From positions 47,203 through 110,012 of the forward strand of contig JASMHZ010000001.1 in the NCBI GenBank assembly GCA_030750465.1: a DNA stretch of 62,810 bases, in the 5' to 3' direction. The first letter of the stretch is position 1. Each line of letters opens with the position of its first letter. The translations under genes were made by a program, and so were the position numbers. The notes under the pieces are model-generated. The model did not search any database. It saw only the letters and a list, made by a program, of their open reading frames with translations, and was not told the DNA's origin. This document shows, in pieces, positions 4,897-48,000 of this stretch. The DNA is from Candidatus Peribacteraceae bacterium (GTDB lineage: Bacteria; Patescibacteriota; Gracilibacteria; Peribacterales; Peribacteraceae).

Positions 4897-5009
4897 ATTA
4901 GTTTCCTATTATTATAGCGCAAAACGCCATTTAAAGGAAATCCTCTGTTTCCTCTGTTTCCTCTGATTCCTCTGCTTCCTTATCAAAATTTCTGCTACAA
5001 TAGCGTCTC

Positions 5010-5594
5010 ATGATTTCTCTGCTTAGGGGCAAAGTCCTAAAAGGCCAACCAAACGAGATCACCATTGACGTCCAAGGGATTGGATACATGGTGCATGTGC
5101 CTATTGATGTCTGGGATGATGTAAAAGGAGGAGAAGAAGCCGAGATTCTGATATCAAGCTATATAAGAGAAGACCGTTTCGATTTGTTCGGATTTAAAGA
5201 CAGCGCAAGTAAATTACTTTTTGAAGAAGCTATCAATCTGCCGGGCATCGGACCAAAGACAGCGCTTGAAATCTGTTCGGTACCACGCAATATGCTTTTA
5301 ACTGCAGTCGAACAACAGGATATGAAACTTCTAAACTCAATAAAGGGTATTGGGAAGAAGACTGCGGAGAAACTTCTCGTTGATCTTAAGTCGCTGACCG
5401 AAAAACATCCTGAGATTTTCGCTAAAGAGATGACAGAAAAATCCGATAGGACAGCTGAGTATGATCAAGATGCAATTGAGGCCCTGACTACCCTTGGTTA
5501 CCCCGCCGCAACCGCTCTCAAAGTTCTTAAAGAAATCCCGAGTGAATGCAAAACTTCCGAGGAGCGAGTTGCAGCTGCACTACGTTCACTATAA
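5010..5594 (+). CDS. ruvA: Holliday junction DNA helicase subunit RuvA
   Basis: 194 aa. It has an N-terminal OB fold, two helix-hairpin-helix motifs (GIGPKTA, GIGKKTA) and a C-terminal domain III. Confidence 0.9.
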   Translation: MISLLRGKVLKGQPNEITIDVQGIGYMVHVPIDVWDDVKGGEEAEILISSYIREDRFDLFGFKDSASKLLFEEAINLPGIGPKTALEICSVPRNMLLTAVEQQDMKLLNSIKGIGKKTAEKLLVDLKSLTEKHPEIFAKEMTEKSDRTAEYDQDAIEALTTLGYPAATALKVLKEIPSECKTSEERVAAALRSL

Positions 5595-7808: not shown

Positions 7809-8030
7809 TTAACTACTCCTTTCCAGATATTGCATCAAATCAGCTGGTTTTGTAAAAATACTAACCACACCACTGTAACGAAATTTGAAACCTACTGCTG
7901 TATTTTCAATTACTTCAATTCTCTCCCCTCGCTCCAAGGTCAGGATTCTCCCACCAGCATCTTTATGCATATCTACGCCACTGTAATCATGGATTACTTC
8001 GTATTCGCCACACGATAGACAGATGTCCAT
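7809..8030 (-). CDS. hypothetical protein
   Basis: 73 aa ORF with no recognisable motif. Confidence 0.35.
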   Translation of the reverse strand: MDICLSCGEYEVIHDYSGVDMHKDAGGRILTLERGERIEVIENTAVGFKFRYSGVVSIFTKPADLMQYLERSS

Positions 8031-8275
8031 AAGGTATGCGGTAAAGTATGCGGTTGGTGAGAGACTCTATTATTTTGGACTAATATGTCAAGAAGATGAT
8101 GGACCGAAACAGGGGTGAGCAATTAAAAAGACTGTGCTCTAGCCAACGTCATAATCTTTTGTCATAATAGATACACAGGGGGGCTGTAGCTCCCCACTTC
8201 GTCCGCCTCAGGCGGACTACGAGGGGCAGGTCAGTATCTTGCGCTTGTTGTTAATTTCCTTATCATACAGACATT

Positions 8276-8352
8276 GGGGCTGTAGCTCAGTTGGCTAGAG
8301 CACCGCGTTTGCAACGCGGGGGTCAAGGGTTCGAATCCCTTCAGCTCCACCA
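8276..8352 (+). tRNA. tRNA-Ala (anticodon TGC), CCA encoded
   Basis: Cloverleaf folds by hand. Acceptor is GGGGCTG/CAGCTCC with the G3:U70 Ala identity pair, anticodon loop TTTGCAA, T-arm GGGTTCGAATCCC. A TTGCGC-16-TATCAT promoter lies 8239-8266. Confidence 0.93.
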
Positions 8353-10088: not shown

Positions 10089-10710
10089 TTCTGTCGCTCT
10101 CTCATAGTTGAGGATTGAGCGTCTCGCAGACGCCCATTTGTACTTGAATTGTCAAAGACCAAGCTCCCTCTAGCAACAAGCTAAAAGAAGAGGCTTAAAT
10201 ACCATATTTGCAACCAAATATCAAGGCTCTAAGACCCCACTTTCACCTCTTCTCCTATAGGCAAATCCTTGGCATTTTTATCGAATTCTGGGTCTACAGA
10301 GAGTCTGCTTTCTTCCGGTAATACCTGCCCCTGATACTTTGACTTGAGAGAAATTGGTCGTAATCGGTTCCAGCCCATTCAACAGCAAGTTTTTGTGGGT
10401 GAAGTGCTTGGAGAGCATTCATCGTTCTTTCGTATCCATTAGGATCGTTATGCAAGACTCCGATTAAGTGCAAATTTTTCATGGAAGAGGGAATTGTATT
10501 TGTTAAGTTAAATTAACACAAGACTTTATCTTCGATATTTTGTGCCTCAATGAAAATGGTTTCACCAAAAATTTCAAGCAAAAGCACAGCTGCACATCGT
10601 CACGAATCCGCCGCGGCGGCTGGTTTTTACTGCGCCCGCCCGCAGCCGCCGCGCCGCACTTTTTTCGCAACCGCGGTTCTGATAATTTCGTATCCGCGCC
10701 ACCATGAACA

Positions 10711-11874
10711 TTAAGTAACAATCTCTTCAACCTTGCCTGACTTCACAGCTGACGCAATCTCCATCGCCACTCTTTCTCCAACACTTATTGAATCACCGTA
10801 CAAGTAACGCGTATAAGGAGTTGCGACTGTACCGGGTGAACCAGGGATTCTCATGGAAACATCAAATATTACAATATCCTCGCTTCCTTCTTCGGCTGTT
10901 ACAGCACCCTGAAGTGCGAACGGTCCTATCATTCCTTTGGTAGAAGGATCTACCTCTGGAGTCAGATTTTTGACGGCTGATACGAACTTTTCTCCCAGAT
11001 CAAATGCCTTTTCCAGTATCGATTCTTTGACCGTAACTGCGATGTGTCCCGTCTCTATCATCTTTGGACTGATGCCGAATTCAAGAGCATGTTTTTGTTG
11101 AGGCGCCAACATTCTGAAGAATCCATCTAAGTTTGTCTGTCTCCTCATATCCGTTCCCATCAATTCCAGTTCACCTGATAGTGGTGAATAGAAAAAGTTG
11201 AAGTTCACATGAGCGCCCACTATAAACTCTTCGATAGTTGCATCGCGCCAATTTGATGCAACTTTGCCTTCTTTCTCGAGTTTAGCTCCTTCCTTTCCCC
11301 ATGATTTCTTATCGTTTGCGATAAAAAATGCACGTTCATAAGTTCGTTCTGCTTCATTTGCCTTAACAAGAACCGGACAATCGATCTCATCAGGCGACTT
11401 GAAGATCTTGGGAATTCTAATACCTGCAAGATTAAGCAAATCATACTGGGTAAAGTGCTGATCGCGCTCTTCAACTCTGAGTAAGTATCGTGATCCGAAT
11501 ATCGGAACCATGAAATTATTCTCGACCTGAGCAAAGTCATCAAAGTAAACCCAGAAGTATCTGTTGTGAATGAATATGGTATTTAAGTCTCTTAAGTTTC
11601 TCTGCACATCCTCATTCAAAATGTCTTGGAACTGATCAACAACAATTAATTCATCAATACAACCAATATCATCCGACCTGTGACCTGTAACCTGTGACCT
11701 GCGACTCTTATAATACTTCTCATAAGTCTTCTCCCTCCCCTTCCTCGCAACACAAACAGTTTTAAATCCGTGTTTCTTGGCTCCGTGGCAGACGTCAAGT
11801 GCTGAATGTCCGCCAAGAACACCTATTGTTAGGTTCTTTAAGTCGTAGCCTTTGAGTAATTCATCGGTATTCAT
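10711..11874 (-). CDS. purP: archaeal-type FAICAR synthetase (PurP-like ATP-grasp), paralogue 1
   Basis: 387 aa. IGVLGGHSALDVCHGAKKHGFKTV..KGREKTY aligns with paralogue 2 and the PurP family (DUF1246/DUF1297). It carries an in-frame insert encoded by an ACCTGTR microsatellite. Confidence 0.75.
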   Translation of the reverse strand: MNTDELLKGYDLKNLTIGVLGGHSALDVCHGAKKHGFKTVCVARKGREKTYEKYYKSRRSQVTGHRSDDIGCIDELIVVDQFQDILNEDVQRNLRDLNTIFIHNRYFWVYFDDFAQVENNFMVPIFGSRYLLRVEERDQHFTQYDLLNLAGIRIPKIFKSPDEIDCPVLVKANEAERTYERAFFIANDKKSWGKEGAKLEKEGKVASNWRDATIEEFIVGAHVNFNFFYSPLSGELELMGTDMRRQTNLDGFFRMLAPQQKHALEFGISPKMIETGHIAVTVKESILEKAFDLGEKFVSAVKNLTPEVDPSTKGMIGPFALQGAVTAEEGSEDIVIFDVSMRIPGSPGTVATPYTRYLYGDSISVGERVAMEIASAVKSGKVEEIVT

Positions 11875-11920
11875 TTGGCTTGTCGCTAATTGTTAATTGT
11901 TAATTGTTAATTGTCAATTG

Positions 11921-12979
11921 TCATCCTAATACATCCTCCAATCTCCCCTGCTCAATTGCCTGCTTAATATCTCTAGAAAGCCTCCGCCCCGTACTCATAG
12001 GCTCGGAGTATCTGAGAGCTGTGTAAGGAGAACCTTCAACGAACGGATTTGTACCCGCAACAATCCTTGCGCTTATCTCGAATACGAAAATTTCAAGCTT
12101 TCTTGTAACAATTGTCTCTAAACAGAACGGGCCGAATAAACCTTTCCCTCCACAAAGTTCCTGACTCGTTTTTATCACCCTCTCACCCATATCGAACATT
12201 TCGGGAAGCAATGACTCTCTGACCACAACAGGGATGTTGCCTACAATCGTGTAGCTGGTGTGAATTTTGGCTACTAATTGATCTTCCGCCTTTATTCGCC
12301 CAATTGAATCTGCATTGGACTCGTATCTCTTATCAAAACTCATGATTTCAAGCTCTTCTGTAACGGGCGAATAGAAGTAATGGATATAAAGTGGAACCCC
12401 AACAATGTATTCCTGTATTGCGAAGTCATTCTGATCCGGATATTTGCGGTTTTTAACTTCATAGAATTGCTCGGGAGTCTTTGCAACGAAATATCCAAAT
12501 CCCCCACCTGCTCCATGGAATTTAATAATTACAGGCTTGTCTATATCTTCAGGTTTTGGATAAAGTCTTGGAAGTTTAAGGCCCGATTTCTCCATCCATA
12601 CCCTCTCTTTGTTTCTGTCCGATTCCCATTCCAGAATATCCTTTGTGCCATAGTACATTGCCTGGAGTTTTTGTACTCTGTCATGGCCCATGTAGGAGAT
12701 AAATGATCCGTGAGGAATTACAATTGCATTTCTTTTAATGAGCTCCTCCTCCAGCTTTTCGTCCCAGTCCGCGAATTTATTTAATGTGAGTATTTCATCT
12801 GCAACAGGGTAATTTTCTGTATAAAGCTTCTCGCGCCCTTTCTCGCAAATCGCAAGCGTTTTCATTCCTTCGTCTTTGGCTCCTTTAAGGATTTGGAGTG
12901 CGCTGTGGCTGCCAAGAGTCGCGATCACGAAGTCCTTCGGATCTGTAGATGCCGGCAATATGGGATGCGGAGTTGCCAT
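11921..12979 (-). CDS. purP: archaeal-type FAICAR synthetase (PurP-like ATP-grasp), paralogue 2
   Basis: 352 aa. IATLGSHSALQILKGAKDEGMKTLAI..KGREKLY is the PurP N-terminal signature, followed by an ATP-grasp C-terminal half. Confidence 0.8.
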   Translation of the reverse strand: MATPHPILPASTDPKDFVIATLGSHSALQILKGAKDEGMKTLAICEKGREKLYTENYPVADEILTLNKFADWDEKLEEELIKRNAIVIPHGSFISYMGHDRVQKLQAMYYGTKDILEWESDRNKERVWMEKSGLKLPRLYPKPEDIDKPVIIKFHGAGGGFGYFVAKTPEQFYEVKNRKYPDQNDFAIQEYIVGVPLYIHYFYSPVTEELEIMSFDKRYESNADSIGRIKAEDQLVAKIHTSYTIVGNIPVVVRESLLPEMFDMGERVIKTSQELCGGKGLFGPFCLETIVTRKLEIFVFEISARIVAGTNPFVEGSPYTALRYSEPMSTGRRLSRDIKQAIEQGRLEDVLG

Positions 12980-15834: not shown

Positions 15835-16067
15835 GGCGAAAGTTGGGTATGTGTTATGTATATTATACTATAAATTACCATTTTAATCAAATATGTAAAT
15901 CTGACATGTATATCATAGGAAATAGAGGATTCATCCCAAACCAGATCTGGAGGCTGTACGGTGAGCCCCTCTCCCTAGGGGAGAGGGGAATCGCCAAAGA
16001 ATTCTACAACCACATAGATCTTCATTCTTCTAATTTTTTCAGGCATACTTGCCTGCGATTATTACGT

Positions 16068-16142
16068 GGTGCCGTAGCCAAGTAGTAAGGCAGCGGTCTG
16101 CAAAACCGCTATACGCGGGTGCAATTCCCGCCGGCACCTCCA
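16068..16142 (+). tRNA. tRNA-Cys (anticodon GCA), CCA encoded
   Basis: Acceptor GGTGCCG/CGGCACC, anticodon stem-loop GCGGT-CTGCAAA-ACCGC, T-arm GCGGG-TGCAATT-CCCGC, discriminator T, CCA. Confidence 0.9.
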
Positions 16143-16170
16143 TTGACAATAGCCAAGCGCGATGTACATT
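16143..16170 (+). promoter_or_regulatory. sigma70-type promoter abutting the tRNA-Cys CCA end
   Basis: TTGACA (16143-16148), 16 nt spacer, TACATT (16165-16170). ATG 16177 follows 6 nt after the -10, so the transcript is predicted to be leaderless. Confidence 0.55.
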
Positions 16171-16176
16171 AGTCTT

Positions 16177-16677
16177 ATGAAAAACCGAGAGACATCTTAT
16201 TCTGGCTTAATATTTGTATTGCTGATAATGGGGATAATGTTCCTATTGGTAGGAATTGATGAGGTAAGAAATAGTAATTACAACACAGGAATACTTGGTG
16301 TGTTGCTTGGAACCACTATGTTGATGCTGTCTGTCGTATTTTTTGATTATTCTAGAAAAAGGAAGGAGGCACAAGAAAATTTAAAAAATAGTGGAGTAAC
16401 AGTAAAAGGAGTTGTTATTAAAATAAAAGAAACAGGAGGATGGCCACTAATCCCCATAAGACGTGTAACAGATTACCGCATTATATTCGAATATAAAGAT
16501 CCCATTAGCCATGAAACAAAGAGGGGCACTAGTGGCTCATTAAGATTTAAGCCTTCGATAAATAAGGGGGATCAAATAGATATTGTTGTGAATCCAAACA
16601 AAAAAAATTGCTACATGATAAAAAGCGAGGAAATACCATTTAATAAAAATTCTTGGTTTAAATTTAAATGGTATTAG
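16177..16677 (+). CDS. cassette 1: small 2-TM protein with C-terminal beta-rich domain (DUF3592-like, tentative)
   Basis: 166 aa from ATG 16177. Two N-terminal TM helices are followed by a soluble domain. The unit is visibly more AT-rich than its flanks. Confidence 0.55.
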   Translation: MKNRETSYSGLIFVLLIMGIMFLLVGIDEVRNSNYNTGILGVLLGTTMLMLSVVFFDYSRKRKEAQENLKNSGVTVKGVVIKIKETGGWPLIPIRRVTDYRIIFEYKDPISHETKRGTSGSLRFKPSINKGDQIDIVVNPNKKNCYMIKSEEIPFNKNSWFKFKWY

Positions 16678-16705
16678 TCTGATGTAAATCCAACCTAATA
16701 AGATA

Positions 16706-16761
16706 ACAACCTGTAACTCCGGCACCTCCAAGTTTACATAAAAACAACAAAGTGGTACAAT
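16706..16761 (+). repeat. R1: copy of the tRNA-Cys 3' end fused to a promoter
   Basis: AACAACCTGTAACTCCGGCACCTCCAAGTTTACA. The core CCGGCACCTCCA (16719-16730) is identical to tRNA positions 16131-16142. TTTACA-17-TACAAT lies at 16733-16761, with ATG 16769 located 7 nt after the -10. Confidence 0.8.
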
Positions 16762-16800
16762 GATCAACTATGGGGGAAAAAGCGAAGTGCAGGCGTTTTA

Positions 16801-17310
16801 GTGACCATTGATCATGGTGGAGAAAAGAAGGCGATTCTACAAATTAGAGATAGCTCTGATTCATATCCCGGGTGCGCACAAGTTACATTTCATGGAAAAA
16901 TGGAGAGAGATCATTACGGTGAATTGGAACAATTCGTAGATGGATTACGTCGTGAATTATACGAAGAAGCACATGAATTGTTTAAGCGTGCGAGTCTAAT
17001 GCCTAATTCAGCATTATTTAGCAGATTTCGAGATTTTCCCGAAATGCAAATTGCATCTTGTATTAGAAATAAGAAGCAGCAAGTGGTGACATTACTATGT
17101 CACATTAATGATCCAGAATTATATGATCAGATAAAGCCTCTATTTGATGCGGGTGTATTGAGACTAGTCGGCGAAGATGATTTAGATAATTTATGTGCTA
17201 TTGAAAAAGGTAATGCTGCTCAAAAGCAGTATGGCATGGGTGACGGGCTCATAGGAATGCACGCTGACGAATTCGAAGTTGTTCAGTCTGTTTTAACCGA
17301 GCAGGAGTAG
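16801..17310 (+). CDS. cassette 2: hypothetical protein with degenerate Nudix-like box
   Basis: 169 aa from GTG 16801 (the alternative ATG is 16900). ..E-x7-RELYEE.. resembles the core of the Nudix box. A 13-codon leaderless uORF (16769-16810) overlaps the GTG. Confidence 0.45.
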   Translation: MTIDHGGEKKAILQIRDSSDSYPGCAQVTFHGKMERDHYGELEQFVDGLRRELYEEAHELFKRASLMPNSALFSRFRDFPEMQIASCIRNKKQQVVTLLCHINDPELYDQIKPLFDAGVLRLVGEDDLDNLCAIEKGNAAQKQYGMGDGLIGMHADEFEVVQSVLTEQE

Positions 17311-17332
17311 CTAAATCTATCTGTATAAAGTA

Positions 17333-17387
17333 GTAACCTGTAACCCCGGCACCTCCAAATTTACAGGCAGCAAAAAAGTGTTAATAT
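17333..17387 (+). repeat. R2: copy of the tRNA-Cys 3' end fused to a promoter
   Basis: AGTAACCTGTAACCCCGGCACCTCCAAATTTACA with core at 17346-17357. TTTACA-16-TAATAT lies at 17360-17387, with ATG 17394 located 6 nt after the -10. Confidence 0.8.
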
Positions 17388-17393
17388 CGAGGC

Positions 17394-17567
17394 ATGAATG
17401 GAATAAACTGGAGTAACCTTGCCGCAGTATGCTCAAAGTACAATAGCCAGGATGAGGTCTTTGATTCGGCAGATATCCAAGATGCAAAGCAACGGGAATT
17501 TCCGAAATTACGTACAATAATCGAATCTCGACTCAATCAAATAACAGCACAAGGACGATTTAAATGA
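17394..17567 (+). CDS. cassette 3a: small hypothetical ORF (57 aa)
   Basis: MNGINWSNLAAVCSKYNSQDEVF..AQGRFK, below the ORF-track length cut-off. It starts at the predicted leaderless position and ends at a TGA that is in frame with ORF 17709-18035. Confidence 0.3.
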   Translation: MNGINWSNLAAVCSKYNSQDEVFDSADIQDAKQREFPKLRTIIESRLNQITAQGRFK

Positions 17568-17708
17568 TGGATAGCACTGTATCAACCTGCAACTCCAGGA
17601 GTTCAGAGAGTTCAGTCAGTTATCACCCGGGAAGAAGCTGAACCGCACTGTGAACGTTGCGAAGAACTCCTTTCATCTGCAATTGATTTTGCACATCAAG
17701 AGATTGAG

Positions 17709-18035
17709 ATGTCTCCAGATTGGAATGAGGCATTAAGTAGAAAACTTGCTTACAAAATTAATAATCCAGATTCTTGGGAGAAAGCTAAAGTTGGAACAAC
17801 ACTGCAGGCATTACTGAAATACCAACGGGAGTTCCTTGTCGAAGTAATTCCAGATTGGTACATCCAACATGGTGGAGATTTGCGAAGTCACGAAGGACTC
17901 AATATTGCGCAAATGTTACAAACTGGAAGAACTGCATCTGAGGCTGCTGATGATTGGCTCGGACCAAATTTTGGGGGTCTGCTTGATGATTTAGATGGTG
18001 GTTACGATCTTGGGATTGACCCTGAATTCGATTGA
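17709..18035 (+). CDS. cassette 3b: acidic hypothetical protein
   Basis: 108 aa ORF. The same frame is open back to 17568. Confidence 0.45.
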   Translation: MSPDWNEALSRKLAYKINNPDSWEKAKVGTTLQALLKYQREFLVEVIPDWYIQHGGDLRSHEGLNIAQMLQTGRTASEAADDWLGPNFGGLLDDLDGGYDLGIDPEFD

Positions 18036-18044
18036 TATTGAGTA

Positions 18045-18071
18045 GTAACCTGAAAACCCGGCACCTCCAAG
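18045..18071 (+). repeat. R3: terminal copy of the tRNA-Cys 3' end (no promoter)
   Basis: AGTAACCTGAAAACCCGGCACCTCCAAG with core at 18058-18069. It closes the array against the convergent gene 18086-18691. Confidence 0.8.
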
Positions 18072-18085
18072 ATCACTTACTGAAC

Positions 18086-18691
18086 TTAAGTTACGACGTT
18101 TCGAACGCCAGCAGAAAAAGTTAGCTCTGGCCATTTATCAGCTAGTTCTGCAACAAGCTTTTGCTGTGAATCCTGCAAGTCGCTATGAGCGTTGGTAATA
18201 TCTATTCGAACATTCGAAGTCCTTTGATAGTTGCAATGTTTCTTCCAAAGCATGGCAAACTCAGGAACACATTTGCCCACTGCTTCTCCTCCTACTTCTA
18301 TATCTACGTTGGCCGGATCAATGATGAAGTTTCGCTCTGCGGCTTCTGCGTTCGCAGCATCAATTTGACGGCAGGTTGTTTTTGTATCTGCCCCAGTGAA
18401 TCCCCACACATCATCCTGCTCCAACAAAAACGGTCCCAAAATATCACACATCATCCGTCTGCCCTTGCAGTAAGAATCTACCCTGTTTTCTCTGTCATTG
18501 TAATGACCAAAAAGAAACAGCAGATGTGCCCTGCATTCTGCCTGGAGTCTTTGGTTGTTATCTGCAATTTCTCTAGCTAGTTCAGCGTATCGCAACCAAT
18601 CGCTACTTCCAAACGCAAATCCCATGCTTTCTCCATGGCAAGGATGGATGAGACCAGTGGCTTTTTCTACATATAACTCATCTGCGCTCAT
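18086..18691 (-). CDS. hypothetical protein
   Basis: 201 aa, Cys-containing soluble protein with no recognisable motif. Confidence 0.5.
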   Translation of the reverse strand: MSADELYVEKATGLIHPCHGESMGFAFGSSDWLRYAELAREIADNNQRLQAECRAHLLFLFGHYNDRENRVDSYCKGRRMMCDILGPFLLEQDDVWGFTGADTKTTCRQIDAANAEAAERNFIIDPANVDIEVGGEAVGKCVPEFAMLWKKHCNYQRTSNVRIDITNAHSDLQDSQQKLVAELADKWPELTFSAGVRNVVT

Positions 18692-18734
18692 ATATGTATA
18701 TATAATACATAATGTGAGTTAAGTCAATAATTCA

Positions 18735-19358
18735 CTAACCCTTTTCCTTATCTTTATCCTTCTTCTTTTTCTTATCCTCTGTTTCTTCTGCTTCTTCTGA
18801 TTCCTCTGCCTCCTTCTCAAAAGAGATACTCATAACAATAGACTCAATCTGTTTCTCTATAGATGACTCTATAAATAGAGGGGACGCAGCAGTGATTGTA
18901 TATCCATCATTTTCTTTAACAGTACTGATTTGGTAGAACTTCCTGGCAGGCTCATCTGATATCGGCTGTGCTGTGAAGACATGCATTGATACGTCCTCTC
19001 CATCAATCCTGACTTCCTTTGTATCTGTGAGTGTATACCCAGGCAAAGTTGAAACTGATCTGATACCTGCTTCACTGTAATCAAGAGGCGATACTTCTCT
19101 CTTCATAGTTTCCCTAGTAACAGTTACTGCCGGGAATTGACCTGATATTGCTTCTTCGAAACGAATAGCAACGATTGTTTCATCGGGGATTCCTCTCTGT
19201 CTTCTAGTTTCTCTGTCCATCACAATCCATTTATCGGGCAAGCATAGGCTGAGAGTGGAATCGCTGTACTCATTATCGCAATCAGAACCCCCGCCTCCTC
19301 CTCCGCAAGCGGTAAGAAGTATGGCAAGGGCAAAAAGTGGCAGTAAAAAGCGAGTCAT
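18735..19358 (-). CDS. lipoprotein with acidic/Lys-rich C-terminal tail
   Basis: 207 aa. The signal peptide has a lipobox (LLTAC-GGGGGG). The tail EAEESEEAEETEDKKKKKDKDKEKG is encoded by the CCTCTGYTTC repeat motif. Confidence 0.7.
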   Translation of the reverse strand: MTRFLLPLFALAILLTACGGGGGGSDCDNEYSDSTLSLCLPDKWIVMDRETRRQRGIPDETIVAIRFEEAISGQFPAVTVTRETMKREVSPLDYSEAGIRSVSTLPGYTLTDTKEVRIDGEDVSMHVFTAQPISDEPARKFYQISTVKENDGYTITAASPLFIESSIEKQIESIVMSISFEKEAEESEEAEETEDKKKKKDKDKEKG

Positions 19359-36856: not shown

Positions 36857-36928
36857 TTTTATTCCTTGAAATTAACGTCATTCTACGTTTTAAATAAACC
36901 AACCCGCCAGGTTTCCTTAAATTACATA

Positions 36929-37561
36929 ATGTTGTACAAGGGAAAATATCGGGCTGAATCCACGCGCCTCAATGGACACTATTACACCGAAGATGGATGG
37001 TATTTTATTACAATATGCACCAGGGATATGGAGTGCGCGTTTGGGAAAATCCAGAATGGAATTATGGGATTATCGGAAATTGGGTGTGTTGTTGCACGCG
37101 AATTGTATCGAACGGAAAAATTGCGATATTACGTTACATTGGATCGATGGATAATAATGCCGAATCACATACATGTAATCATTAAAATTGAACGCAACGC
37201 TGTTATTGATCACATGCACAATCAATTTCGACAACAAATAAATCAAACGCCCGTCGTAGAGACGTCCCGCCGGGACGTCTCTACCACACGGGCCATGTTG
37301 TTGTTTAACGATGTAAATGGTCGCATACAAAAAAACCCACCACGTTTACGCCCTCATTCAATCGGATCAATCGTCGGCCAATTCAAAACCTCATGCACCA
37401 AACAAATACGCAAAATGGGGCATCACAATTTTGCATGGCAAACGCGATTTTACGACCGGATTATTTGGAATGGCGATACACTAAATACAATACGAAAATA
37501 CATCCGTTTGAATCCTGTAAAATGGGAACGTGATAGAAATAATCCTGAATCCCTTAATTAA
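36929..37561 (+). CDS. REP-associated tyrosine transposase (RAYT; IS200/IS605 TnpA-like Y1 HUH enzyme)
   Basis: About 210 aa from ATG 36929. It has the HUH motif MPNHIHVII, the N-terminal YKGKYRAESTRL..YFITICT block and the catalytic-Tyr region WQTRFYDRII. Confidence 0.8.
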   Translation: MLYKGKYRAESTRLNGHYYTEDGWYFITICTRDMECAFGKIQNGIMGLSEIGCVVARELYRTEKLRYYVTLDRWIIMPNHIHVIIKIERNAVIDHMHNQFRQQINQTPVVETSRRDVSTTRAMLLFNDVNGRIQKNPPRLRPHSIGSIVGQFKTSCTKQIRKMGHHNFAWQTRFYDRIIWNGDTLNTIRKYIRLNPVKWERDRNNPESLN

Positions 37562-46101: not shown

Positions 46102-48000
46102 TCAAGATTTCATCAAATCTTCCAAAGTATCTCCAAACAGCTTAAATCCATCCGTAGAAAAAATCGAATCTGCATGGAACTGGAAGCTTGCAAAGTGCGA
46201 ATTCCTCATTGCATGCACTTCTCCGGAGTTTTGATCGTAAGCCATCTCGACATCAGCAATTTCTTCGTACTGGGCAGCAAATGAGTTGTAGAAACCAACT
46301 CTCTGTTTTTCTCCATCAAAGTAATCGATTACCTTCTGAACACCCTGTGAAGGATCATCTTTCTTATTTATCTTCAAACCAAGCTCTCTGCAAAGCATTT
46401 GATGACTTAAACATTCTGCAAAGAACTTTTTGCCTGATGATTTCAGTTCGCTGACAATTCGACTTAAGCGTGCCATCTTAGGATTATTCATATCATTCGG
46501 ATCTCCCGGACCCGGGCCTACTATCACAAGATCTGAATTGTCACCCGCAACCTCGTAATCTGAATATTTAACGACTTCCGCGGTAACGCCAAGGCTTTTG
46601 ACCATGTGCTTGAGCGTGTATGCAAAATCATCTCCATTATTGATGATTGTAATCTTCTTTTCCTTTAGAGCATCCCTCGTATTATCAACATGCTCCTGAT
46701 TTTCCATCAGGTATCTATTAAAGAGCTCGTTTCTTTCCGCAAGAATTCGCTGAATCTCTGGATCCTCAAGAAGCTTAGCAATCGAAGACTGCGGCTTTGT
46801 GCCGTTCTTATTCTTTAAGCACTTAAGCAGTGCACCAGCTTTTGCCTGAGTCTCTTTAACTTCTTCTGCAGGGACAGAGTCTCTGACCAATGTGGCTCCA
46901 GCTGGGATGCTTATCTCTCCATCTTCCGCATTAATAGTCGCTGTTCTGATTGTGATTGCACTATCCAACACATTTTCCCCATCTCCGTCGCGCCCCATCA
47001 TAACAAGCGCACTTGCATAGTAGCCTCTGGATGCCTGCTCGTACTTATAAATAATTTCGCTAACTGCGTGCCCCATCGGACTACCTGTGACAGTAGGTGC
47101 AAACATGGATCTGCGAAGAAGATCAATGATGTCTTTGTCGCTCATTCCTTCAAGCATGTATTCCGAATGTCCCACATTGCTCATTTCCCTGATGCTCGGA
47201 CCTATGGACTCTCCCCCCTTTTCACACATTCTCGACACCATCTTGAACTCTTCATCCCAAACCATCGCAAGCTCCATTATCTCTTTGTTATCCCGGAGGA
47301 ACGCAATTAATTGATCTCTGGTTACAGGTTTTCCGTTCTTTCTGACGGTTCCACTGATTGGAACCATCTGCACTTGTTTCTTTTTAACTGATAAATGCTT
47401 CTCCGGTGAAGCACCAACTATGTATCTTTCACCGTCATACATTACATAAGACATATAGCTTCCATACTCCGTTTCAAGAATTGTTCTAAGGACGCTAAGA
47501 ACCACTTCGCGAGAAATATTCAAAATCTTTCCCTTATAAACGTTTGGAATTACAAAGTTTGCTCCTTCTCCGTTTCCAATCTCATCTTCCAACACTTTTC
47601 TGATTAACTCCTCATATTCATCAAGAGGAATTGTCGGTTCAAGTTCGTTTCCGCCTTCAAGCTCCAGATCTTCCCTTGGAATTCTTGCACAAACTTTCGC
47701 CACAGACATTCTTGTCTGTCTTTGTATTTCAATTGTAGAAATTTTCTCACCACCATCATGCACTCTATATCCTTTTTCTTTTACCTGGCTAAACGGAAGT
47801 ACGCTGATCGTGTCGAATTCTTCATCACCATTATCAGTTTTCCCCGTTTTTCTGGGAATCTGTTCAAGAAGATCATGCTGACTCGTCTCACCTTCCAAAA
47901 GCATCACTTCATCTTCCCCCTCGCGCATAACCATTGCGAATGGCTGGTCGCCACCTATGATTCTGTCTAATGCCGCTGATGGTGATTTAGATAAAGACAT
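46102..48000 (-). CDS. fused chorismate-utilising enzyme + class I glutamine amidotransferase (TrpE(G)/PhzE-like anthranilate synthase family)
   Basis: 632 aa. The N-terminal chorismate-binding domain has ..TVTGSPMGHA..RGYYASAL..ITIRTA..AGATLVRDSVPAEEVKETQAK. The C-terminal GATase has CLSHQ (the Cys nucleophile) and FQFHADS. Confidence 0.85.
   Translation of the reverse strand: MSLSKSPSAALDRIIGGDQPFAMVMREGEDEVMLLEGETSQHDLLEQIPRKTGKTDNGDEEFDTISVLPFSQVKEKGYRVHDGGEKISTIEIQRQTRMSVAKVCARIPREDLELEGGNELEPTIPLDEYEELIRKVLEDEIGNGEGANFVIPNVYKGKILNISREVVLSVLRTILETEYGSYMSYVMYDGERYIVGASPEKHLSVKKKQVQMVPISGTVRKNGKPVTRDQLIAFLRDNKEIMELAMVWDEEFKMVSRMCEKGGESIGPSIREMSNVGHSEYMLEGMSDKDIIDLLRRSMFAPTVTGSPMGHAVSEIIYKYEQASRGYYASALVMMGRDGDGENVLDSAITIRTATINAEDGEISIPAGATLVRDSVPAEEVKETQAKAGALLKCLKNKNGTKPQSSIAKLLEDPEIQRILAERNELFNRYLMENQEHVDNTRDALKEKKITIINNGDDFAYTLKHMVKSLGVTAEVVKYSDYEVAGDNSDLVIVGPGPGDPNDMNNPKMARLSRIVSELKSSGKKFFAECLSHQMLCRELGLKINKKDDPSQGVQKVIDYFDGEKQRVGFYNSFAAQYEEIADVEMAYDQNSGEVHAMRNSHFASFQFHADSIFSTDGFKLFGDTLEDLMKS

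Follow-up and report, generated by a model that had tools for sequence, protein, structure and literature searches.

Downstream of the tRNA-Cys gene of a marine member of the Peregrinibacteria/Peribacteraceae, within the candidate phyla radiation (CPR), lie three tandem units of one gene each, every one of them closed by an exact copy of the last 12 nt of the tRNA. The array was analysed in a stretch of 62,810 nt (the window; contig JASMHZ010000001.1 of assembly GCA_030750465.1), about 63 kb of a host genome of roughly 1 Mb. We consider it likely that the units are miniature cassettes without an integrase, which were inserted successively at the tRNA 3' end by conservative site-specific recombination and mobilised in trans. 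It is the comparison of related loci that points to mobility.

Repeats and junctions of the array

The attachment core, CCGGCACCTCCA, spans the last base of the T stem, the 3' acceptor strand, the discriminator and CCA. An exact search found it four times in the window, always on the plus strand (starts 16131, 16719, 17346 and 18058); 0.12 copies are expected by chance, and none of 100 shuffles reached four. The three downstream copies, R1 to R3, had been noticed in an initial annotation made from the letters of the sequence, and the search agreed with it. That annotation had also held that the 5' part of the longer repeat around each copy does not derive from the tRNA, and R1-R3 do share a non-tRNA left arm, AACCTG[T/A]AA[C/A][T/C] (three matches, none expected). 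Exact copies of the left-arm 10-mer are confined to the array, apart from one at 47321. With the motif forming no window-wide repeat family, a repetitive extragenic palindrome (REP/RAYT) or 'ACCTGTR microsatellite' reading is ruled out, and the scattering of the repeat that the annotation had named as fatal to its own proposal is not seen in the window. A degenerate fifth copy at 17583-17596, which the annotation had suggested might subdivide the third unit, proved not to be a cassette boundary, since it sits in the codons of an invariant LYQPA motif kept in the homologues of the cassette 3 gene. As a control, the last 11 nt of 17 tRNAs in ten loci were sought in the same orientation within 4 kb. 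Copies were found downstream and never upstream, at tRNA-Cys in three lineages and at the tRNA-Ala of locus L046, and nowhere else.

Read outwards from the tRNA, the junctions run tRNA-core-right arm, then left arm-core-right arm at R1 and R2, and finally left arm-core-unrelated sequence at R3. Such a series, attL / attP-like / attP-like / attR, is what tandem insertions should produce. A short inverted repeat of 5-7 bp surrounds the core, with CCTGTAA in the left arm and TTACAGG (R2) or TTACA (R1) in the right arm. Measured from core to core (Table 1), the units have the sizes of 0.6-0.7 kb first estimated, and the first of them is the most AT-rich, as had been observed, in a window of 43.0% GC. 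Promoter, open reading frame (ORF) and arm fill each unit almost completely and leave hardly any spare DNA.

All three of the near-consensus promoters that had been described as abutting the core were recovered by a promoter scan, each beginning 0-2 nt past a core. Promoter-like sites are not in excess across the region (11, against 8.5 +/- 2.8 in shuffles), so the non-random signal is the fixed position of a promoter beside the core. The ATGs at 16177, 16770 and 17394 follow the -10 boxes by 6, 8 and 6 nt; the close spacing previously noted holds, with the distance of 6-7 nt corrected accordingly, and leaderless or near-leaderless mRNAs are predicted from it. R3 lacks a promoter, as had been seen, and marks the end of the array, where it adjoins a convergent gene of 201 aa.

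Two kinds of recombination site were considered for the repeats and rejected. Folding of the repeat regions as single-stranded DNA gave -1.4 to -6.1 kcal/mol (z +0.3 to -1.7), which is background and rules out attC-like hairpins; nor is GGTGCCG, the partner strand of an acceptor-like helix, present at the repeats. In reverse complement, the R1 right arm includes TTATGTAAACT, a sequence that we take to resemble a XerD arm. By inspection, there is no XerC arm or central region and R2 lacks the R1 match, and a dif/Xer site was therefore dismissed.

Related loci in sister species and at other tRNA genes

The host was assigned to the Peregrinibacteria/Peribacteraceae through homologues of the neighbouring glutaredoxin-domain membrane protein. 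Sister loci were chosen through the neighbour protein (96, 88, 87, 83 and 76% identical). The tRNA-Cys is 100% identical in L022, L024, L026 and L049 and 96% identical in L051. None of the sister loci contains the three cassettes, while L022/L023, L026/L027, L049 and L051 keep tRNA-Cys and its neighbours; an identical array in all relatives, which the initial annotation had listed as evidence that would count against it, is thus not what the sister species carry. In a BLASTN comparison of the window with L022 (80% over 1,330 nt), homology resumes exactly at 18058, where R3 begins; the counterpart of R3 in L022 is the second core. It follows that 16143-18057 is inserted DNA and that R3 is a genuine junction between element and chromosome.

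The second core of L022/L023 lies 71 nt past the tRNA, behind a different left arm (GTCATGAGCCCGTCGAATGG), and abuts the homologue of the 201-aa gene. A scar of the same type lies 127 nt past the tRNA in L026/L027, which have no 201-aa gene. In L049, the closest relative (96%), the scar has decayed to CCAGCACCCACA, and in L051 there is no second core. In L024/L025 the tRNA-Cys lies in inverted orientation among different genes, one of them for a Y1 transposase. Because the sister scars are of another type, the tRNA-Cys site must have been used by at least two types of element.

Several further observations concern this hot spot. The region of the 201-aa gene (18070-18744) is itself subject to an indel, being present in the window and L022 and absent from L026/L027, where the core is followed by 77 nt and a lipoprotein gene; the indel starts exactly at the core copy, and a repeat at its far end is not visible. 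About 330 nt downstream of tRNA-Cys, beyond the decayed core, L049 carries a truncated reverse-transcriptase gene (4904-5371; RVT_1, E = 3.8e-6), another kind of insertion at the site. The Y1 gene of L024 (12349-13026) stands directly beside tRNA-Cys; it was rejected as an orthologue of the Y1 gene of the window, with which it has only a 36-aa stretch around the HUH motif in common. Two tandem paralogues of PurP, an archaeal-type purine enzyme (DUF1246/DUF1297), lie at 10711-12979, 3-5 kb upstream of tRNA-Cys, and the pair is conserved in every sister locus.

The module of cassette 3 recurs at other tRNA genes. In all the contexts fetched for homologues of its gene (L053/L054, L055-L057 and L058), the gene is found directly 3' of a tRNA in the same orientation (Table 1). 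By rough reasoning this placement is far from chance, because only a few per cent of genes have a co-oriented tRNA within 0.5 kb upstream. The sequence past the gene in L055-L057 is TAGTAACCTGTAACCCC, identical at 17/17 positions to the R2 arm of the window including the first two core bases; it runs into CCGTCGTCACCA, which matches the end of the local tRNA-Leu (CCGGCGGCACCA) at 10/12 positions. L053 has a degenerate arm and core past the gene. In both L053 and L055 the core, or a degenerate form of it, leads into TTTACA and, after 16-17 nt, a -10 box, with an ATG 6 nt further on, a promoter layout common to these two junctions and the three in the window. A three-way alignment shows homology from the -35 hexamer to the arm and core and nothing common beyond. 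L058 retains a 9-nt partial copy of the tRNA end downstream and has lost both arms. In L055-L057 the 15-nt arm is perfectly conserved, whereas the protein encoded by the ORF shares 69% identity; conserved beyond the ORF, the arm is probably functional, and this suggests that it is still under selection. L056 comes from a groundwater metagenome.

Relatives of the cassette 2 gene also occur beside tRNA sequences. P0124, a NUDIX-like relative (30%), is the first gene after an extra copy of the tRNA-Ala(CGC) 3' end in L046/L047, and an arm of weak similarity (z about 2.4) comes after the gene for P0122 (56%). In L046/L047 (5037-10315), tRNA-Ala(CGC) is accompanied by direct copies at 7852-7867, 10220-10231 and 10300-10315 and a degenerate copy at about 7690. 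The resulting units of about 2.8 kb, 2.4 kb and 84 nt hold an Mrr-type nuclease gene and several small ORFs, and no integrase was found in 16 kb. The tRNA-Ala of the window (8276-8352) appears to lie in a scarred locus as well: its 3' end recurs inverted, with 11/12 positions matching, as TAAGCTCCACCA on the minus strand at 7787-7776, about 20 nt past the stop of a 73-aa minus-strand ORF (8030-7809), and fragments of its 5' half are found at about 8180-8195 (plus strand) and 8147-8130 (minus strand). The neighbours of tRNA-Ala vary, with NhaA in the window and an HTH_5 gene in L022 and L024.

Taken together, the sister-species junction, the inner junctions and the recurrence at tRNAs support the proposal of the initial annotation that the repeats are integration scars at a tRNA attachment site.

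Within the species, we collected contigs encoding the exact flanking proteins from TARA, JGI, Logan and NCBI metagenome-assembled genomes (MAGs). The 17 that span the array (L001-L017) are 100% identical over 2,251 nt (15835-18085), with zero substitutions. The data sets are geographically separate, and this is a widely distributed and unusually clonal CPR population; the identity of the contigs shows that it is clonal here and is silent on current mobility. One further contig, L018 (GCA_030752995.1, a 58-kb MAG contig), stops at window position 16179, 37 nt past the tRNA-Cys 3' end; the assembly may have broken there because the population is heterogeneous or because coverage drops at the AT-rich cassette.

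Table 1. Coordinates of the tRNA-Cys array in the window, and tRNA genes beside homologues of the cassette 3 gene
Feature	Position	Strand	Details
tRNA-Cys(GCA), encoded CCA, intact	16068-16142	+	ARAGORN; Rfam 66 bits
Attachment core CCGGCACCTCCA, final 12 nt of tRNA-Cys; attL-type junction	16131-16142	+	exact-repeat search
Cassette 1, 588 bp, 34.2% GC	16143-16730	+	core-to-core
Cassette 1 predicted promoter	16143-16170	+	TTGACA-16-TACATT, 10/12; promoter scan
Cassette 1 ORF, intact	16177-16677	+	166 aa, predicted membrane protein
Cassette 1 left arm	16704-16718	+	
Core copy R1	16719-16730	+	
Cassette 2, 627 bp, 39.4% GC	16731-17357	+	core-to-core
Cassette 2 predicted promoter	16733-16761	+	TTTACA-17-TACAAT, 10/12; promoter scan
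Cassette 2 ORF	frame open from 16732, annotated GTG 16801, stop 17310	+	divergent NUDIX-like
Cassette 2 left arm	17331-17345	+	
Core copy R2	17346-17357	+	
Cassette 3, 712 bp, 42.1% GC	17358-18069	+	core-to-core
Cassette 3 predicted promoter	17360-17387	+	TTTACA-16-TAATAT, 9/12; promoter scan
Cassette 3 gene, single	ATG 17394 to 18035	+	about 213 codons; premature TGA 17565-17567
Cassette 3 left arm	18043-18057	+	2 mismatches
Core copy R3; attR-type junction	18058-18069	+	
Conserved chromosomal flank B'	18070-18691	-	3' end and body of 201-aa gene, convergent on the array, outside the cassettes
tRNA-Leu(CAG)	L053/L054		37 nt upstream of cassette 3 homologue
tRNA-Leu(TAA)	L055-L057		168 nt upstream of cassette 3 homologue
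tRNA-Gly(TCC)	L058		about 430 nt upstream of cassette 3 homologue

Cassette genes and the search for a recombinase

Each unit had been credited with one or two small ORFs. That description suits units 1 and 2, and unit 3 turned out to hold one interrupted gene. The cassette 1 protein had no match in profile searches of Pfam, PHROGs, PADLOC, NCBIfam or PDB, and a search of 1.84 billion representative proteins yielded just six weak relatives. The cassette 2 family is matched by PF00293 in three of four members (best E-value 2e-6), and its weak PDB matches are likewise NUDIX enzymes; the homologues are P0122 (56%), P0123 and P0124 (30-32%). Homology with P0122 extends upstream of the annotated GTG start of cassette 2, where a shift of 1 nt within a G5A5 run (ATGGGGGAAAAAG, 16770-16803) has put the ancestral ATG at 16770 out of frame. 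This homopolymer indel could be an on/off switch or simple decay; the offset is identical in all 17 conspecific contigs.

In unit 3, the 57-aa and 108-aa ORFs are in one frame and are split by a single TGA. Five homologues (P0125-P0129, 213-230 aa) span 99-100% of the read-through product, and all of them have an invariant glycine at the position of the TGA. TGA is a normal stop in the host, where it ends 10 of 30 Pfam-supported genes, and the TGA of cassette 3 is hence a premature stop; an alternative host code in which TGA specifies glycine is ruled out by the same count. Such a reassignment (code 25) exists in related Gracilibacteria and Absconditabacteria. A single GGA-to-TGA mutation is the simpler reading of the lesion, with a code 25 donor as the alternative. 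Matches to the cassette 3 protein were absent from Pfam, PHROG, NCBIfam and PADLOC families and from PDB structures, including all solved recombinases, and a protein-level search of viral contigs and plasmids found nothing.

No tyrosine or serine recombinase is encoded among the window ORFs of at least 150 aa (Pfam and precomputed annotations; shorter ORFs outside the array were not scanned), in line with the initial statement that no integrase is visible in the flanks. Recombinase domains were likewise absent from every cassette ORF, and recombinase genes from the 7-10 kb around the loci of the cassette 3 and cassette 2 homologues. The only DNA-breaking enzyme found in the window is an IS200-like Y1 (HUH, Y1_Tnp) gene at 36866-37561, 19 kb from the array. 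An element of the IS200/IS605 (Y1 HUH) or REP/RAYT kind was rejected: the cassette ends are without hairpins, 12-nt direct repeats bound them, and the left-arm 10-mer is not dispersed.

We also scanned for the arms elsewhere. The left arm with the core gave no match in viral contigs, three single matches in GTDB species genomes (from unrelated phyla and not near a tRNA; chance alone would give about as many) and 17 single matches in JGI metagenomes (GC-rich soil contigs, chance-like). Scans of the viral contigs with the right-arm junction, with the 'X' arm of the sister species and with the left arm alone gave no match each. No related integrase-bearing element was recovered in these viral, genome or metagenome scans.

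Origin of the array and relation to known systems

If the units are trans-mobilised cassettes, a circular cassette would run from the right arm with its promoter through a start codon, one gene and a TAGTAACCTGTAAC-type left arm about 15 nt long to the 12-nt core CCGGCACCTCCA; in the right arm, TTTACA or TTGACA would adjoin the core as the -35 hexamer and precede a -10 box. Recombination between cassette and tRNA within the core would regenerate the tRNA and leave a core copy at the distal end, and repeated insertion at the tRNA-proximal core would push older cassettes outward. The recombinase would act in trans, encoded at another place in the genome or on a transient element, and the 12-nt identity block at the junctions suggests a tyrosine-type integrase. 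Excised circles would be expected to carry the junctions AACCTGTAACT-CCGGCACCTCCA-TTGACAATAGCC (cassette 1), TAACCTGTAACC-CCGGCACCTCCA-AGTTTACATAAAAAC (cassette 2) and TAACCTGAAAAC-CCGGCACCTCCA-AATTTACAGGCAGC (cassette 3), and the empty site would read AATTCCCG-CCGGCACCTCCA-AGATCACTTACTG.

From the tRNA outwards, GC content rises (34, 39 and 42%), the gene passes from intact through a 5' frameshift to a nonsense mutation, and the outermost left arm is the most degenerate. This gradient fits an order in which the newest cassette lies nearest the tRNA and the oldest outermost, as has been described for tycheposon stacks (bioRxiv 10.1101/2020.12.28.424599).

A number of points weigh against trans-mobilised cassettes. 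No recombinase was identified in the part of the genome covered, the left arm with the core recurs beyond chance level in no other genome, metagenome or viral contig scanned, and neither a circular form nor an intraspecies empty site nor reshuffling of cassettes was seen, the 17 conspecific contigs being identical. The families are tiny, with five homologues for cassette 3 and three for cassette 2 among 5.8 billion proteins. At the other tRNAs the cores are degenerate, and the module of L058 is without either arm. Promoter function is predicted from consensus matches. Finally, two of the three cassette genes bear lesions, and the array may for this reason be an inactive relic; it looks fixed and partly decaying in this clonal population.

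A possible, though in our judgement unlikely, origin is decay, in which the units are remnants of three successive larger integrase-bearing elements (a prophage, an integrative and mobilisable or integrative and conjugative element (IME/ICE), or a tycheposon-like element), that is, relics of the type known as cis-mobilisable elements (CIMEs), and were never mobile as 0.6-kb units. Deletion would have stripped each of these elements of its integrase and the bulk of its genes. There are precedents in tycheposons, whose tandem integrations are parted by partial tRNA copies and whose degenerate remnants are documented (bioRxiv 10.1101/2020.12.28.424599), and in the similar CIMEs and ssrA islands, 15 of the latter without an integration module (PMC5704250, PMC3146451). 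The damage to two cassette genes fits as well, as do the larger units of the L046 array (2.4-2.8 kb) and the sister scars, whose 71 and 127 nt show that decay to almost nothing does occur at the tRNA-Cys site. CPR genomes are also streamlined, which makes a deletion bias plausible. However, every unit keeps both of its ends around exactly one gene, and three independent, precise internal deletions would be needed to produce this. The same minimal module of promoter, gene, left arm and core is moreover found at tRNA-Leu(CAG) and tRNA-Leu(TAA) without integrase fragments, and the conservation of the left arm relative to the ORF argues for selection on the arm.

We regard as improbable a second scenario, in which cassette 3 is autonomous, its protein of about 213 aa being a new site-specific recombinase or transposase that acts on the left arm and on the 3' ends of tRNAs, cassettes 1 and 2 share its arms as non-autonomous passengers, and the TGA has disabled the system in this lineage. 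At both tRNA-Leu sites the module holds the cassette 3 gene and no other, and in L058 that gene closely follows tRNA-Gly; none of these loci has an integrase within 7-10 kb. The module begins and ends at cores, and no other gene always accompanies the arms. A unit of about 0.7 kb with one ORF would be about as large as the smallest insertion sequences, those of IS200, and the family has many invariant charged or polar residues, including S-R-K-x-A-Y. Against this stand the lack of similarity to any known family or solved recombinase structure in the searches described above and an AlphaFold model of low confidence (pLDDT 49), and no RHRY, serine-recombinase, HUH or DDE pattern is recognisable by eye. 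The family is also rare, with one copy per locus examined, unlike a successful transposable element, and a strong constitutive leaderless promoter would be atypical for a transposase.

That the repeats are instead RNA or DNA signals (for 3' processing or termination) copied from the tRNA end, or a product of local duplication, is very improbable: they do lie 20-40 nt past each stop codon, where a 3'-end signal is expected, and the cassettes have no intrinsic terminators on the plus strand, but the GGTGCCG partner strand is missing, hairpin potential is at background (z -0.5 to -1.7), Rfam has no match in the array besides the tRNA, whole units are present or absent exactly at cores in sister species, the three units are mutually unrelated in sequence and so are not local duplications, and core copies elsewhere match the local tRNA and not tRNA-Cys, which recombination predicts and a fixed signal does not, making a non-recombinational role unlikely.

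We therefore return to integrase-less cassettes mobilised in trans and to their place among known systems. As in tRNA 3'-end integrative elements generally, the identity block lies in the 3' part of the tRNA, which remains intact (66 bits). Among described systems, the array comes nearest to CIMEs, tandem accretion and tycheposon remnants. Islands related to ICESt1 in Streptococcus thermophilus and, in Dehalococcoides, the ssrA islands without an integration module (PMC5704250, PMC3146451) have attL/attR-type repeats from the 3' end of the target gene and, like the array, stack in tandem at one site without integrase or transfer genes; the ssrA islands also resemble it in a conserved non-target motif just upstream of each direct repeat. 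In structure the array resembles a CIME, flanked by att sites and lacking an integrase. CIMEs are, however, kilobase-scale relics of ICE or IME descent, whereas the units of the array are single genes of 0.6-0.7 kb with a predicted promoter in the arm, with no known homology to ICEs or IMEs and no known cognate element that bears an integrase, and its minimal unit recurs at several different tRNAs.

Tycheposons and the tRNA-seeded islands of Prochlorococcus (bioRxiv 10.1101/2020.12.28.424599) likewise belong to marine streamlined genomes and combine tRNA integration, partial tRNA copies and tandem arrays. They carry a tyrosine or large serine recombinase with replication genes, measure several kb or more and have att sites of about 40 nt, whereas the array has a 12-nt identity block and single promoter-bearing genes, and the hallmark genes are absent from the cassettes and from the window ORFs of at least 150 aa.

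The initial annotation had called the units integron-like, trans-mobilised cassettes. The cassette structure and the want of an integrase nearby bear it out, and 'integron-like' survives as an analogy, the tests for an integron having failed. Integrons and clusters of attC sites lacking integron-integrases (CALINs) share with the array small, mostly single-gene cassettes in one orientation on a fixed platform, a recombinase outside the cassette, a recombination site closing each 3' end, and platform-proximal insertion. Integrons are defined by intI, attI, attC hairpins (imperfect palindromes of about 57-141 nt) and mostly promoterless cassettes served by a common Pc; in the array the tRNA 3' end is the platform, the core is its direct copy, and the cassettes have predicted promoters of their own (9-10/12). 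No intI-type tyrosine recombinase or Phage_integrase domain was found among the window ORFs of at least 150 aa, and with no attI, no attC hairpins and cassettes bearing their own promoters, identity as an integron or CALIN was rejected.

Mobile insertion cassettes, elements resembling miniature inverted-repeat transposable elements (MITEs) and the pdif modules of Acinetobacter plasmids are also small passenger modules framed by recombination or transposition sites, with the enzyme elsewhere. Their boundaries are terminal inverted repeats with target-site duplications, or XerC/D sites, in contrast to the array, where a 12-nt direct repeat is the tRNA end and is combined with the inverted repeat CCTGTAA/TTACAGG. 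As far as the sequences tell, the distinctive traits of the array are units of 0.6-0.7 kb, a putative promoter built into the att arm, an arm conserved across genomes and a core that matches the occupied tRNA.

The genomes of CPR bacteria (Patescibacteria) are tiny, and to our knowledge little is known of how they acquire genes. If the cassettes are mobilised as we propose, they would represent a minimal gene-capture platform, integron-like in its working and built from the parts of tRNA integration, which would explain hypervariable spots beside tRNAs in CPR genomes and, once the enzyme is found, would provide very small portable att sites (an arm of about 15 nt and a core of 12 nt). Should the orphan protein of cassette 3 prove to be that enzyme, it would be a new recombinase, and its cassette the smallest integrative element known and a self-contained gene-capture system in the CPR. 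The conservative reading, too, implies tRNA-anchored islands built from units of only about 0.6 kb, which island-finding tools keyed to integrases or size would miss.

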